Source: Bacteroidia bacterium
Lineage (GTDB): Bacteria; Bacteroidota; Bacteroidia; B-17B0; Aurantibacillaceae
Reading direction: 5' to 3'
Assembly: GCA_044238845.1 (NCBI GenBank)
Contig: JBIICN010000004.1
Coordinates: 73,785 to 97,784 of the forward strand
Length of the DNA stretch: 24,000 nt
Below the pieces are notes generated by a model. The model saw nothing but the letters and a program-made list of their open reading frames with translations, did no database searches and had not been told where the DNA came from. Positions 13,105-14,010 of the stretch are shown one piece after another. Position 1 is the first letter of the stretch. Each line of letters starts with the position of its first letter. The position numbers were made by a program, and so were the translations under genes.

Positions 13105-13186
13105 TGGGAATAATAGGATTCGAACCTATTCAGCCGAAGCAGCGGTTTTACAGACCGGCCTAACTCTCCAACGTTAGCGTATTCCC
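13105..13186 (-). tRNA. tRNA-Tyr (GUA), class II
   Basis: GGGAAUA CG CUAA CGUUGGAGAG UUAG G CCGGU CUGUAAA ACCGC + variable arm with UUCG loop + AUAGG UUCGAAU CCUAU UAUUCCC A. Position 8 is C and there is a 27:43 mismatch. Confidence 0.8.
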
Positions 13187-13190
13187 TTTG

Positions 13191-13264
13191 GGCGAGATAC
13201 GGGATTCGAACCCGGTATTGACGGATCCACAGCCCGTAGTGTTAGCCATTACACTAATCTCACC
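13191..13264 (-). tRNA. tRNA-His (GUG) with encoded G-1:C73
   Basis: G-GUGAGAU UA ... ACGGG CUGUGGA UCCGU CAAUA CCGGG UUCGAAU CCCGU AUCUCGC C. Confidence 0.9.
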
Positions 13265-13275
13265 ATAATAAATTG

Positions 13276-13348
13276 TCGGGAAGGCAGGACTCGAACCTGC
13301 AGCCACATGCTCCCAAAGCACGCCATCTGCCAATTGAAATACTTCCCG
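13276..13348 (-). tRNA. tRNA-Pro (UGG), copy A
   Basis: CGGGAAG UA UUUC AAUUGGCA GAUG G CGUGC UUUGGGA GCAUG UGGCU GCAGG UUCGAGU CCUGC CUUCCCG A. It has C1-G72 and G37, as expected for Pro, and a weak D stem. Confidence 0.85.
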
Positions 13349-13356
13349 TATTTATG

Positions 13357-13430
13357 CCGATCTGTAAGGAGTCGAACCTTAAACCTTTCGATTCGTAATC
13401 GAAAACTCTATCCAATTGAGCTACAGATCG
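13357..13430 (-). tRNA. tRNA-Arg (ACG)
   Basis: CGAUCUG UA GCUC AAUUGGAUA GAGU U UUCGA UUACGAA UCGAA AGGUU UAAGG UUCGACU CCUUA CAGAUCG G. It has a C1-G72 pair. Confidence 0.85.
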
Positions 13431-13434
13431 TATG

Positions 13435-13507
13435 TGGAAACAGTAAGACTCGAACTTACATCTACGGATCTTCAATCCGTCGCATTGACCATCATTGCTA
13501 TATTTCC
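13435..13507 (-). tRNA. tRNA-Phe (GAA)
   Basis: GGAAAUA UA GCA AUGAUGGUCAA UGC G ACGGA UUGAAGA UCCGU AGAUG UAAG UUCGAGU CUUA C UGUUUCC A. Confidence 0.9.
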
Positions 13508-13510
13508 TTG

Positions 13511-13586
13511 TCGGGGAGGCAGGATTCGAACCTGCGAACTCTGGTTTCCAAAACCAGCGAGGACGGCCTGACTCCTCTACTTCCCG
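13511..13586 (-). tRNA. tRNA-Pro (UGG), copy B (divergent body)
   Basis: CGGGAAG UA GAGG AGUCAGGCCGU CCUC G CUGGU UUUGGAA ACCAG AGUUC GCAGG UUCGAAU CCUGC CUCCCCG A. It has one acceptor mismatch (5:68), an 11-nt D loop and A37. Confidence 0.75.
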
Positions 13587-13600
13587 TATTTATTTTTTAG

Positions 13601-13673
13601 TTAGGATAACAGGACTTGAACCTGTAGCCTTGTACGCATAAGGTACTTGCTCTTACCATTGAGCTATATCCTA
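13601..13673 (-). tRNA. tRNA with anticodon UAU (Ile-type, AUA reader)
   Basis: UAGGAUA UA GCUC AAUGGUAA GAGC A AGUAC CUUAUGC GUACA AGGCU ACAGG UUCAAGU CCUGU UAUCCUA A. It has a U1-A72 pair. Confidence 0.75.
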
Positions 13674-13677
13674 GTTG

Positions 13678-13760
13678 CGGAGAGTATAGGAATCGAACCC
13701 TGTCCTTTCGGACCGCCTCAGATTTCAAGTCTGATTGATCACCAATGATCGCTACTCTCC
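13678..13760 (-). tRNA. tRNA-Ser (UGA), class II, weak T stem
   Basis: GGAGAGU ... UCAGA CUUGAAA UCUGA + variable arm GUCC GAAA GGAC + T region ACAGG GUUCGAUU CCUAU + ACUCUCC G. Confidence 0.7.
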
Positions 13761-13772
13761 TTTTTTATTTCG

Positions 13773-13857
13773 CGGAGAAATGAGTTCCCGACACCCATTC
13801 GCCTTGACGAACACTTTGCTTAGCAAGCAAGTCTGAGCCCCGCTCAGTTATTTCTCC
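13773..13857 (-). tRNA. tRNA-Ser (GCU)-like, class II, non-canonical D arm and T loop
   Basis: GGAGAAA UA A CUGAG CGGGG CUCAG ... CUUGC UUGCUAA GCAAA ... UUCG UCAAGG CGAA ... UGGGU GUCGGGA ACUCA UUUCUCC G. The T loop is GUCGGGA rather than UUCGAAU. Confidence 0.6.
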
Positions 13858-13861
13858 TTTG

Positions 13862-13935
13862 TACCTTCTGTAAGATTCGAACTTACACTAACTTGTTTCT
13901 AAGACAAGCGCCTCTACCCATTGGGCTAAGAAGGT
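13862..13935 (-). tRNA. Class I (short variable loop) tRNA with the Leu anticodon UAG, atypical
   Basis: ACCUUCU UA GCC CAAUGGGUAGA GGC G CUUGU CUUAGAA ACAAG UUAGU GUAAG UUCGAAU CUUAC AGAAGGU A. It has an A1-U72 pair. Confidence 0.65.
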
Positions 13936-13938
13936 ATG

Positions 13939-14010
13939 TTGTCGGAAATGGACTCGAACCACTATTCTCAGATTCAAACTCTGACGTCCTGCCGATTAGA
14001 CGATCCGACA
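13939..14010 (-). tRNA. tRNA-Gln (UUG)
   Basis: UGUCGGA UC GUCU AAUCGGCA GGAC G UCAGA GUUUGAA UCUGA GAAU AGUGG UUCGAGU CCAUU UCCGACA A. The U1-A72 pair is as in bacterial tRNA-Gln. Confidence 0.85.

Follow-up and report, generated by a model that had tools for sequence, protein, structure and literature searches.

Why should an uncultured Bacteroidota bacterium carry eleven tRNA genes packed into 906 bases inside an island of RNA-repair genes? In order to determine whether these genes are an ordinary housekeeping cluster, a spare set, or something other than translating tRNAs, we examined the window (the whole 24,000-nucleotide stretch of DNA that was analyzed) and the corresponding loci of relatives (designated here by L numbers). 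The array is most likely an accessory set, and it appears to be switched on by short leader peptides whose codons call for the same tRNAs that the cluster encodes, which would make a feedback sensor for a damaged tRNA pool.

Eleven tRNA-shaped genes in an RNA-repair island

The initial annotation described eleven tRNA genes with 3- to 14-nt spacers and no encoded CCA at 13105-14010, and this observation is confirmed. ARAGORN at default settings and Rfam RF00005 above its gathering score both call nine tRNAs in 13104-14010 on the - strand, and both also call tRNA-Lys(UUU) at 8980-9052 (-). In transcription order, the array begins with tRNA-Gln(UUG) at 13938-14010 (57 bits in Rfam; U1-A72 and A73 are conserved in 9/9 orthologues), followed by a tRNA with anticodon UAG ("Leu") at 13861-13935, which scores 64 bits, has A73, and is of class I length (74 to 75 nt), as are its orthologues in L005, L018, L025, and L029. 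After the two Ser-type genes come a tRNA with anticodon UAU ("Ile") at 13600-13673 (68 bits, with G37 in the window copy), a 77-nt tRNA-Pro(UGG) paralogue with an A5.C68 mismatch at 13510-13586, tRNA-Phe(GAA) at 13434-13507 (42% GC, G37), tRNA-Arg(ACG) with C1-G72 at 13356-13430, a 74-nt tRNA-Pro(UGG) paralogue at 13275-13348, tRNA-His(GUG) with an encoded G-1 and C73 at 13190-13264, and finally the class II tRNA-Tyr(GUA) with A73 at 13104-13186 (35 bits). A terminator-like hairpin follows the array at 13046-13062 (-).

The 187-nt stretch 13674-13860 holds the two Ser-type genes. tRNA-Ser(UGA), a class II gene with G73 at 13677-13760 and 8 orthologues, is called by ARAGORN only at 95% thresholds and gives a sub-threshold Rfam tRNA-Sec match of 35.5 bits. 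Ser(GCU), at 13773-13857, is called by no tool down to 80% thresholds; its T loop reads GUCGGGA and lacks T54/A58, and its D stem has 6 bp. Detection by standard models is therefore split across the array and leaves open to argument whether every member is a canonical tRNA gene. However, Ser(GCU) folds as a class II cloverleaf and is conserved in 7 distinct loci, in which 98.9% of cells are paired and 10 of 26 pairs show changes on both sides, values that 0 of 500 shuffles reach. Similarly, 13 of 21 pairs of Arg(ACG) show compensatory changes among 10 orthologues, so that cloverleaves are maintained by compensatory substitution in both families.

Spacers measured from Rfam and ARAGORN ends are 3, 4, 12, 4, 14, 3, 4, 8, 11, and 4 nt, of which six of ten are 3 to 4 nt, as had been claimed. 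No gene is followed by CCA, although 10 of 11 are followed by N73-CA. The surroundings are also as the initial annotation described: an RtcB gene (6447-7874), a second RtcB gene (17393-18796) with a PrfH-like RF-1 protein, and a WYL-WCX regulator (11934-13082, +) that is convergent with the array, along with Rsr/Ro60 (TROVE plus vWA; 10316-11833, -) and two RlaP genes. The rtcBb-prfH-like-AAA+/M41 operon (14693-18796, -) lies immediately upstream of the array's leaders. The two RtcB genes and Rsr are clear, but the adjacent tRNA-like Y RNAs are seen only as sub-threshold YrlA matches of 29 and 22 bits, against a gathering score of 69, plus visible T-arm/D-arm modules, so that we do not assign the locus with confidence to the Rsr-Y RNA-RtcB type. 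The Lys(UUU) gene lies downstream of rsr and of this Y-RNA-like region.

Presence and variability of the array among relatives

The interpretation offered in the initial annotation, a spare or decoy tRNA set that buffers or reports tRNA-targeting attack, mirroring the tRNA arrays that phages use against host tRNA nucleases, is partly supported. Comparison of related strains for presence of the array relative to the rtcB and rsr genes had been proposed as a check, and its outcome is linkage: all 18 distinct loci with Rsr at least 79% identical carry tRNA arrays beside wyl-rsr, while all 10 loci with Rsr at 77% identity or less have none. Content ranges from 3 genes (L004) to 25 (L029, in which 13 + 12 genes flank wyl-rsr), and position varies as well: next to the wyl 3' end, 6 kb away, downstream of rsr, or after rlaP. 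Flanking genes also differ between loci, and this patchy distribution is consistent with horizontal acquisition. The array lies directly downstream of repair operons, which are rtcBb-prfH here and thg1-rnl in relatives.

Orthologous tRNAs are only 66 to 98% identical, while Rsr is 79 to 96% identical, and disrupted copies are tolerated in relatives. A stand-alone Val(UAC) in L004 (58% GC, CCA encoded) is only 53 to 56% identical to the array Val genes (38 to 44% GC). The array has other features that are not housekeeping traits: stems as low as 42% GC, an Ile UAU anticodon, a class I "Leu," and A/G switching at position 37 of Phe and Pro between orthologues; C1, U1, and A1 5' ends also occur. 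All of this fits a spare set rather than sole essential copies. Normal scores had been named beforehand as a point against a spare set, and by this measure the array is not abnormal: Rfam scores of the array tRNAs (35 to 68 bits) overlap those of the two stand-alone tRNAs (64 to 70 bits), so that bit score does not separate the two groups. Housekeeping copies of the same isoacceptors in this genome are inferred, not seen, since only 24 kb of it was read (assembly GCA_041447075.1 contributed no DNA) and no whole-genome tRNA census was made. The possibility that this is an ordinary housekeeping cluster that merely lies next to the repair genes draws on these normal scores, on the fact that tandem tRNA clusters are common in bacteria, and on the chromosomal location (contigs up to 1.5 Mb). 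Compared with the variability described above, and with the position of the array behind three terminators (see below), we consider it very unlikely.

The initial annotation also saw a striking overlap, once Lys(UUU) is included, with classical anticodon-nuclease targets (Lys for PrrC and RloC, Arg for colicin D, Tyr and His for colicin E5, and Gln and Lys for gamma-toxin-type enzymes). This is not supported. Ten amino acid specificities are present, including 5 of the 8 classical target amino acids, which is about what chance gives (hypergeometric P of about 0.33), and relatives carry near-complete decoding sets of up to 25 tRNAs covering nearly all amino acids.

The decoy or reporter version has no specific support. 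In this view, the array RNAs are not mainly used in translation but soak up tRNA-cleaving nucleases or yield fragments that act as ligands for the island's regulators or for Rsr, much as Y RNAs mimic tRNA. The array is closely associated with rsr and several tRNA-like Y-RNA modules, and non-canonical forms occur (the Ser(GCU) T loop, the class I "Leu," and tRNA genes in relatives with hairpins replacing T loops). In addition, the sponge idea has been voiced for the Anabaena L-array (PMC8421152), and tRNA halves activate RtcR in Salmonella (PMC7790460). However, anticodons, U33, and isotype-appropriate discriminators are conserved in every family. Discriminator bases match the bacterial identity rules of the anticodons (His G-1/C73, Pro C1-G72/A73, Ser G73, and Tyr/Phe/Leu/Ile/Lys A73), which fits translating tRNAs better. 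Identity elements are as expected for His, Pro, Ser, Tyr, Phe, Ile, and Lys, but the UAG tRNA has A73 without a long variable arm and isotype-specific models (tRNAscan-SE) were not applied, so that isotype consistency is not settled for the array as a whole. The leader ORFs described below sample decoding of the same codons, which makes sense only if the products restore decoding. The absence of a WYL operator at the array (see below) also speaks against this view. We regard the decoy reading as unlikely.

Direct control of the array by the WYL regulator is not indicated. The operator TGCGCAAT-N3-ATTGCGCA, defined from 15 rsr-wyl intergenic regions, occurs in the window at 12005-12023, 11892-11910, and 8384-8402 (upstream of the rtcBa-rlaP operon) but not near the array or rtcBb.

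We also considered a decaying remnant of a phage- or mobile-element-derived array with no current role, in which the leader codon pattern would be fortuitous or reflect AT-rich composition. Some relatives have disrupted genes and lost blocks: the window keeps only Lys of "array B," the block of which Lys(UUU) is the first gene in relatives, and L024 lost Gln and Leu. The nearest database matches of individual tRNAs are phage tRNAs at about 75% identity, but this similarity is only generic, and no Rsr relative was found in the viral contigs searched. Together with the many compensatory changes in the cloverleaves, the conservation of the leaders, and composition-matched empirical nulls in which the leaders are the sole outliers (see below), this makes a functionless remnant improbable.

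Finally, the array might be a codon-usage supplement that boosts decoding of codons enriched in island genes or stress proteins, independent of any RNA damage. Phage tRNA sets were long explained this way (PMC10264068), and the set includes AUA, CUA, and CGA decoders. In contrast, the sampled classes make up 41% of codons in the window's genes and include very common ones such as Lys AAA at 9%, relatives carry near-complete sets, and the array is embedded among RNA ligases, RlaP, Thg1, and PrfH. We consider this the least likely of the alternatives.

Small ORFs and terminators upstream of the array

Three tandem units, each consisting of a small ORF and an intrinsic terminator, lie directly upstream of the array on the - strand. 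Unit 1 (14427-14504) encodes MKNYFTYRQKFSPIGHSPLLCLWGQ followed by a stop codon and covers all 11 anticodon classes of the array; it is conserved in L024 and identical in L021 to L023. Its terminator, T1, is at 14365-14396, and weak Rfam Trp/Phe-leader-like matches span 14365-14452. Unit 2 (14300-14350) encodes MKRSTQPLFYFIPGYS followed by a stop codon, with 13 of 15 codons cognate to array tRNAs and 10 of 11 classes covered; the proposed antiterminator strand GGAGAUCG lies 2 nt after its stop codon, and terminator T2 is at 14235-14266. Unit 3 (14077-14133) encodes MALRPHSFIYSFQSQLND followed by a stop codon, with 13 of 17 codons cognate and 10 of 11 classes covered. It is followed 2 nt after the stop codon by the proposed antiterminator strand AGGAUUGG (14067-14074), by hairpin 1 (14053-14066; 5 bp, 2 pairs with compensatory changes), and by terminator T3 (14018-14052), a 9-bp stem with one A.C mismatch and then a U run, 8 nt before tRNA-Gln. 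T1 and T2 are called by a simple terminator scanner, but T3 is not. Upstream of the units, the block at 14493-14721 (-) is a 72 to 73% copy of the rtcBb upstream block at 19082-19309 and includes a TAcaTTTG box at 14527-14538.

The codons of these ORFs mirror the array's anticodons, covering 10 to 11 of 11 classes in 16 to 25 codons. Random 24-codon ORFs cover all 11 classes with P = 3.4e-4. Among 594 six-frame ORFs of 15 to 17 codons and 484 of 18 to 20 codons, the only ones with at least 10 classes are these leaders, unit 2 being the only such ORF of 15 to 17 codons. Among 38 small ORFs lying just upstream of tRNA clusters, the leaders rank at the top for cognate-codon runs. L028 is an independent case: its array of Pro, Phe, Gln, and His follows a non-homologous leader reading QQRFPQPH plus a terminator, and only 3 of 3504 small ORFs reach 7 of 8. 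Most of the other leaders are homologous and so are not independent observations. Co-variation of leader and array is imperfect; it holds for L028, L055 (Tyr), and L029 (Ile), but it fails in L095 and L097, which lost codons whose tRNAs are still present, and partly in the window, whose leaders contain Thr, Gly, Val, and Asp codons without matching tRNAs. A metagenome scan with the leader pattern gave 64 hits, of which 61 were chance matches, as expected from the information content of the pattern, and only L050 and L055 were real. No leader was found for array B.

The reading frame is kept across 16- and 17-codon cores, unit 3 is conserved in frame in 10 leader variants, and a stop codon followed by 2 nt and AGGAUYGG is invariant in 10 leader variants. 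This strand can pair with the 5' arm of the terminator (14049-14043, CCGAUCC) in 7 of 7 aligned sequences, and complementary strands are present in all units. Nascent-RNA folds sequester the 5' arm unless a ribosome on the stop codon masks the strand. However, folding predicts that the antiterminator also forms with no ribosome at all, in equilibrium folds of units 1 and 2 the terminator wins, and the antiterminator helix shows only one-sided changes with no double compensations. Since gating by ribosome position was only modeled, the evidence for a competing, ribosome-gated pairing does not yet point firmly either way. A T-box-like reading of the conserved UGGU in the leader was rejected because the leader, at roughly 90 nt, is too short for a stem I.

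A proposed spare tRNA operon and related systems

Our preferred explanation, which we hold to be somewhat more likely than not, is that the array is the remaining half of a supernumerary tRNA operon of the L-array type, acquired by one clade of uncultured Bacteroidota and built into their wyl-rsr-Y RNA-rtcB-rlaP-prfH RNA-damage island. In this model, the array is normally kept off by three intrinsic terminators in series, each preceded by a small translated leader ORF made mostly of codons read by the array's own tRNAs plus Lys. When the leader is translated smoothly, the ribosome would reach the stop codon and cover an antiterminator strand that lies within the last codons or exactly 2 nt downstream, the terminator would form, and transcription would stop. 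When any of the sampled tRNAs is scarce, uncharged, or cleaved, or when ribosomes fail, the ribosome would stall earlier, the free antiterminator strand would pair with the terminator's 5' arm, and RNA polymerase would read into the array. The 11 tRNAs would then be cut out and CCA added after transcription, and fresh tRNAs with divergent bodies and anticodon loops would refill the pool, so that leader translation resumes and the array shuts off again. The genes and their conserved structures, their linkage to the island and variability among relatives, and the leader ORFs with their codon bias, terminators, and complementary strands are demonstrated here, whereas translation of the leaders and its coupling to transcription, induction of the array, charging and use of these tRNAs in translation, and tRNA-cleaving toxins or defence nucleases as the relevant stress are inferences from sequence. 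Neither expression, leader translation, and read-through on tRNA limitation nor charging and nuclease resistance were measured.

The most unusual aspect of this model, which we judge about as likely as not, is a leader peptide that acts as a sampler of the tRNA pool, with about one codon for each tRNA species encoded downstream, in up to three units in series. Failure to decode any sampled codon, for example after anticodon-nuclease or toxin attack, would switch on a replacement set next to the RNA ligases that repair the damaged tRNAs. To our knowledge, no leader-peptide attenuator that regulates tRNA genes or that samples many different codons at once has been described, and a full-text search, which did not extend to any mention of tRNA genes in the comparative paper on RNA-repair systems by Burroughs & Aravind (2016), found none. 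Extra tRNA arrays are widespread in bacteria and phages, but what they are for, and how cells decide to use them, is known in only one system, Anabaena, which uses a repressor. If the leaders work as proposed, this locus is a self-contained, sequence-readable circuit in which translation of a codon sampler reports the state of the tRNA pool and directly gates a spare tRNA set, placed beside RtcB, RlaP, PrfH, Rsr, and (in relatives) Thg1, Rnl, and Pnkp. This would link attenuation, RNA repair, and tRNA-targeting conflict systems, which are usually treated separately, would make the spare-tRNA idea testable with simple reporter constructs, and offers a compact sensor of decoding capacity. It also shows that cellular genomes, not only phages, can carry the tRNA-replacement-plus-repair toolkit.

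L-arrays are long, horizontally spread, supernumerary tRNA gene arrays such as the trn operon of Anabaena sp. PCC 7120 (Santamaria-Gomez et al. 2021, PMC8421152; TrcR, PMC10272220), which is induced by translation impairment and co-regulated with rtcB (PMC8421152). Shared features are many tRNA genes in tight tandem on one strand, beyond what accretion gives, patchy distribution among relatives with near-complete decoding sets in some members, a neighborhood rich in RNA-processing genes including rtcB, and a proposed role as an inducible subset used when translation is impaired. Here, however, the array is split into two blocks around a wyl-rsr-Y RNA core in Bacteroidota, and the predicted control is leader-peptide transcription attenuation with codons matching the array, while in Anabaena a repressor (TrcR) acts on direct repeats in the promoter.

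The leader-peptide attenuators of amino acid operons (trpL, hisL, pheL, leuL, and thrL; for pheL, see PMC3082878) have a short ORF, then an antiterminator strand, then an intrinsic terminator, with regulatory codons placed so that a stalled ribosome frees the antiterminator. The leaders here share the short ORF and the terminator, with a proposed antiterminator strand between them, and L028 even shows a 1:2 / 2:3 / 3:4 arrangement. In contrast to these, the regulated genes here are tRNAs rather than biosynthetic enzymes, the leader holds about one codon for each of some 10 different tRNAs instead of a run for one amino acid, up to three units stand in series, and in units 2 and 3 the proposed antiterminator strand lies just after the stop codon.

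Phage tRNA sets that bypass tRNA-targeting defences (T5 and others; PMC10264068, PMC11555353, PMC11464382) and the tRNA, RtcB, RlaP, and Ro60 toolkits of jumbo phages (PMC7824862) share extra tRNAs with altered anticodon loops alongside RNA ligases, RlaP, and a Ro60 homologue, and the logic of replacing or repairing cleaved tRNAs. This array is instead chromosomal, in a cellular genome, and no phage genes were seen. In the rsr-yrlBA-rtcBA operon of Salmonella (RtcR/CARF, activated by tRNA halves; PMC7790460, PMC4201824), Rsr, tRNA-like Y RNAs, and RtcB are encoded together and respond to tRNA damage. The locus here resembles it in its Rsr and RtcB genes and its Y-RNA-like modules, but the regulator is a WYL-WCX protein, there is no RtcA and no RtcR, and real tRNA genes, up to 25, are part of the locus. 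The tRNA array is not part of the described RtcB2-PrfH ribosome-repair module (PMC9223846, PMC13166195), but an rtcB-prfH pair sits immediately upstream of the array, with its promoter block duplicated in front of the array's leaders, and it is accompanied here by a third gene (AAA+/M41 protease-like) and a conserved 10-codon leader plus terminator.

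The tRNA genes of the array and their distribution among relatives

ARAGORN and Rfam agree on nine tRNA genes on the - strand between 13104 and 14010, and on a tRNA-Lys(UUU) at 8980-9052. The stretch that both leave uncalled, 13674-13860, holds the two Ser-type genes that had been listed in the initial annotation. Ser(UGA), at 13677-13760, is called once the ARAGORN thresholds are lowered to 95%, and it gives a sub-threshold tRNA-Sec match in Rfam. In contrast, Ser(GCU), at 13773-13857, is never called. However, it still folds as a class II cloverleaf, and across seven distinct loci 98.9% of pair cells are standard pairs, 10 of 26 pairs have changed on both sides, and no shuffled alignment reaches this. 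Its 6-bp D stem and its T loop, GUCGGGA, are invariant and non-canonical. The spacers are 3, 4, 12, 4, 14, 3, 4, 8, 11 and 4 nt, and no CCA is encoded. After the discriminator base, 121 of 149 tRNA genes in the array loci continue with CA (CAA, CAT, CAC or CAG) rather than CCA, which may be a processing signal or a partial CCA. The neighboring genes that had been described are real: two RtcB genes, a PrfH-like RF-1 protein, an AAA+/M41 protein, Rsr, a WYL-WCX regulator and two RlaP genes. We confirm that the array exists as it was first described, with the qualification that one of its members is a non-standard tRNA.

The window comes from an uncultured Bacteroidota MAG (GCA_041447075.1), and its Rsr has many close homologues on chromosomal contigs of up to 1.5 Mb. 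The presence or absence of the array in related strains relative to the rtcB/rsr genes had been put forward in advance as a point to check. We collected loci around Rsr relatives (designated here by L and a number) from species genomes, assemblies and metagenomes. Every distinct locus with an Rsr at least 79% identical carries tRNA arrays next to the divergent wyl-rsr pair, and every locus with an Rsr at 77% or less has none. The arrays form two blocks. Block A holds Gln, Leu, Ser, Ser, Ile, Pro, Phe, Arg, Pro, His and Tyr, and lies either at the 3' end of wyl or 6 kb away behind an inserted gene cassette. This cassette is found in one subclade (L015, L017, L018, L025 and L094, about 3000-8700) between block A and wyl, and encodes an unknown protein, an ATP-grasp (YheCD-like) protein, a HAD/PNK3P-like hydrolase, a sulfatase-like protein and two radical SAM proteins. 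Block B starts with Lys(UUU) downstream of rsr and its Y-RNA-like region, and in L005, L006 and L029 it continues with Thr, Asn, Asp, Trp, Glu, Gly, Met, Ile(GAU), Val, Arg(UCU) and Cys. A conserved, strongly structured RNA of about 150 nt, which has no Rfam match at gathering thresholds, lies between tRNA genes of block B (L005 13091-13346; L006 208-367). L029 has 25 tRNA genes in all, while the window keeps block A and only Lys of block B. Other loci have small arrays elsewhere in the island: L003, L004 and L016 after rsr, and L028 after rlaP.

Divergence and tRNA features of the array genes

Orthologous array tRNAs are 66-98% identical between genomes whose Rsr proteins are 79-96% identical. 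The cloverleaf is nevertheless kept, with 13 of 21 Arg(ACG) pairs showing compensatory double changes among 10 sequences. GC content falls to 35-44% in several members. Anticodon-loop positions 32, 37 and 38 vary within families, although the anticodon and U33 never change. Position 37 switches between A and G in Phe (6:6), Pro (10:11), His, Leu(UAG), Arg(ACG) and Ile(UAU), and position 32 takes all four bases in Gln, whereas the loops of Lys(UUU), Ser(UGA), Trp and Arg(UCU) are invariant. The switching is unusual because residue 37 is normally fixed per isoacceptor. All "Leu" tRNAs are class I in length, and Ile is read by a UAU anticodon.

Several relatives carry copies disrupted by insertions (L005 8049-8178 and 13867-13966; L018 2291-2386 and 2461-2561; L015 1868-1960; L017 1805-1900 and 2081-2206; Tyr and two Pro genes in L055; and L097 about 7100-7340). 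In these, TCACG-N4-6-CGTGA replaces part of the T loop, CCCGATAACTATCGGG sits in D or T loops, and inserts of about 50 nt sit in anticodon loops. Whether the inserts are a mini mobile element, introns (RtcB is a splicing ligase elsewhere) or decay is unexplained, but the same hairpin families recur in different tRNAs.

The two stand-alone tRNAs seen in a relative look different from the array genes: they are 57-58% GC, the Val(UAC) of L004 encodes CCA, and that Val is only 53-56% identical to the array Val genes. The rest of the window's own genome was not examined, and the existence of housekeeping duplicates is inferred. The scores of the genes had also been named beforehand as a point to examine, and by Rfam they are ordinary. 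Since, in addition, discriminator bases and other class features fit each anticodon, these look like working tRNAs and not decayed ones.

The initial annotation had also claimed a striking overlap between the set and the targets of anticodon nucleases. The classical targets are the tRNAs for eight amino acids, Lys, Arg, Tyr, His, Asn, Asp, Gln and Glu, of which the window's ten amino-acid specificities include 5. The expected number is 4, and the hypergeometric P is about 0.33. Furthermore, relatives carry near-complete sets, so that the composition indicates a decoding set and not a list of targets. Taken as a whole, the interpretation first offered is partly supported: a spare set is supported, enrichment for nuclease targets is not, and a decoy role is unsupported.

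Leader ORFs and terminators upstream of the array

The 680 nt between the stop codon of the AAA+/M41 gene and tRNA-Gln begins with a 230-nt copy (72-73% identical) of the block upstream of rtcBb, which includes the same Bacteroidetes-type TAcaTTTG box. This is followed by three intrinsic terminators in series, T1 at 14396-14365, T2 at 14266-14235, and T3 at 14052-14018, the last of which ends 8 nt before tRNA-Gln. Each terminator is preceded by a small ATG ORF with an A-rich upstream region: MKNYFTYRQKFSPIGHSPLLCLWGQ in unit 1, MKRSTQPLFYFIPGYS in unit 2, and MALRPHSFIYSFQSQLND in unit 3. Between T2 and unit 3, at 14150-14215, lie a long hairpin (GGAAGGACUGUGCC...GGUGCAGUCCUU) and a 27-codon ORF (MQVSSERKDCAETKEMVQSLLKNKKIN), both of unknown function and both conserved in L024 and L050. 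The codons of the three leader ORFs are overwhelmingly those read by the array's tRNAs plus Lys, and they cover 11, 10 and 10 of the 11 anticodon classes. Random 24-codon strings drawn with the window's codon usage cover all 11 classes with a probability of 3.4e-4. As an empirical null, we used every six-frame ATG ORF in all loci, and of 1,078 ORFs of 15-20 codons, the only ones with at least 10 classes are these leaders and their orthologues.

Unit 3 is conserved directly upstream of block A in ten sequence variants (the window, L050, L005, L029, L015, L018, L025, L055, L095 and L097), most leaders being homologous to one another. The frame is kept across 16- and 17-codon cores, ORF length varies from 18 to 27 codons, and the stop is TGA or TAA. 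In every variant the stop codon is followed by exactly 2 nt and then AGGAUYGG. This strand can pair with CCGRUCC, the distal part of the terminator's 5' arm, in all seven aligned sequences (AGGAUUGG with CCGAUCC in the proposed pairing), although the helix shows only one-sided changes and T3 is imperfect. Units 1 and 2 have equivalent strands, GGGGU inside the last codons and GGAGAUCG 2 nt after the stop, respectively. Folding of the nascent RNA up to the terminator's 3' arm gives the antiterminator whenever the ribosome is absent or stalled in the first half of the ORF, and gives no competing structure when a ribosome is placed on the stop codon. Equilibrium folds of units 1 and 2 favor the terminator, which is expected for kinetic control but is unproven. 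In L005 and L029, the leader overlaps the stop codon of the upstream RNA ligase gene, and there the array lies in the thg1-rnl operon, behind the proposed attenuator.

An independent case is found in L028, which has a different small array (Pro, Phe, Gln and His) right after rtcB-HEPN_AbiV-rlaP-rlaP. Between rlaP and tRNA-Pro lie an unrelated 26-codon ORF whose middle reads QQRFPQPH, a strand (CUUAUGGG) inside the ORF that duplicates the terminator's 3' arm, and a strong terminator. Seven of eight consecutive codons are cognate to just four anticodons, which only 3 of 3504 small ORFs reach. Among the 38 small ORFs lying within 200 nt upstream of any tRNA cluster in the data set, the leaders rank at the top. 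There are other hints of co-variation between leader and array. In L055, the Tyr gene is disrupted and the leader has GAT in place of TAT; L029 lacks Ile(UAU) and its leader uses ATC. L005 and L029, which have a large block B, have leaders extended with Asn, Lys, Asp, Glu, Gly, Thr and Ile codons. However, the match is not strict, since L095 and L097 lost codons whose tRNAs remain, and the window's leaders contain Thr, Gly, Val and Asp codons without matching tRNAs.

The rtcBb-prfH-AAA/M41 operon has a conserved leader of its own (18981-19127, - strand; L003 8162-8400, L016 6627-6860, and L029 about 455-700). It consists of a TAcaTTTG box (19116-19127), a 10-codon ORF (19035-19067, MLALNLNKHT*) and a terminator (19007-18982), and the stop codon overlaps AAGCCGG, which can pair with the terminator's 5' arm. 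This looks like a second ribosome-gated attenuator, one that would sense general translation failure, upstream of a ribosome-repair module.

Proposed attenuation and the surrounding RNA-damage island

The simplest account of these observations is leader-peptide attenuation of a spare tRNA operon. In this view, smooth translation of the sampler ORF would let the terminator form, while a stall at any sampled codon, or general translation failure, would free the antiterminator and let transcription enter the array. The genes, leaders and terminators are read directly from the sequence, whereas all of the regulatory claims rest on sequence and folding, and transcription-translation coupling in Bacteroidota is assumed. 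It is likewise only inferred that the trigger in nature is tRNA cleavage by toxins or defense nucleases, and that the variable anticodon loops confer resistance as shown for phage tRNAs (PMC10264068). This account matches the behavior of the Anabaena L-array, which is induced by translation impairment, is co-regulated with rtcB and helps survival (PMC8421152). We regard the locus as a variant of the L-array kind, whose proposed control device differs from that of Anabaena. The part of greatest interest is the codon-sampling leader, which the initial annotation did not include; a full-text search, in a collection that is incomplete, found no report of leader-peptide control of tRNA arrays. The remainder of the island has its own logic.

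A 19-bp palindromic operator, TGCGCAAT-N3-ATTGCGCA, lies twice between wyl and rsr (12005-12023 and 11892-11910), with one copy overlapping the -33 region of the rsr promoter, and once (8384-8402) upstream of the operon of a small membrane ORF, rtcBa, DUF5677 and rlaP. In relatives it lies upstream of rtcB or rlaP, and it is absent from the array and from rtcBb. It is presumably the binding site of the WYL regulator and defines its regulon.

Relatives add Thg1, two kinds of ATP-dependent RNA ligase, a Pnkp-like kinase/phosphatase, RNase T, Band-7 and HEPN proteins. They place Thg1 plus an RNA ligase (PF09414) directly upstream of the array leader, and elsewhere in the island they carry a T4 Rnl1-like ligase next to a Pnkp-like kinase/phosphatase, RNase T, Band_7 and HEPN_AbiV (L025/L026 1-1566; L027 and L029 about 5360-7360; L027 20277-21518). 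The island is thus a general RNA-damage toolkit, like the one described in jumbo phages (PMC7824862).

The region between rsr and tRNA-Lys (9053-10315) holds at least five tRNA-like T-arm motifs (GGTTCGAATCC) with D-arm-like partners, two of which give sub-threshold YrlA matches (9072-9189 and 9372-9466). One element, at about 10275-10085, looks like a tRNA with acceptor, D and T arms and a roughly 130-nt insert in place of the anticodon arm, and the sequence CACAAACGTTCTTTGA follows both this element and tRNA-Tyr. A near-threshold Flavo-1 match (39.4 bits against 42) lies at 9659-9741 on the + strand. Just after tRNA-Lys, at 8619-8939, a 105-106-aa protein of unknown role, with only an S24 (LexA/UmuD-like) peptidase domain, is conserved in most loci.
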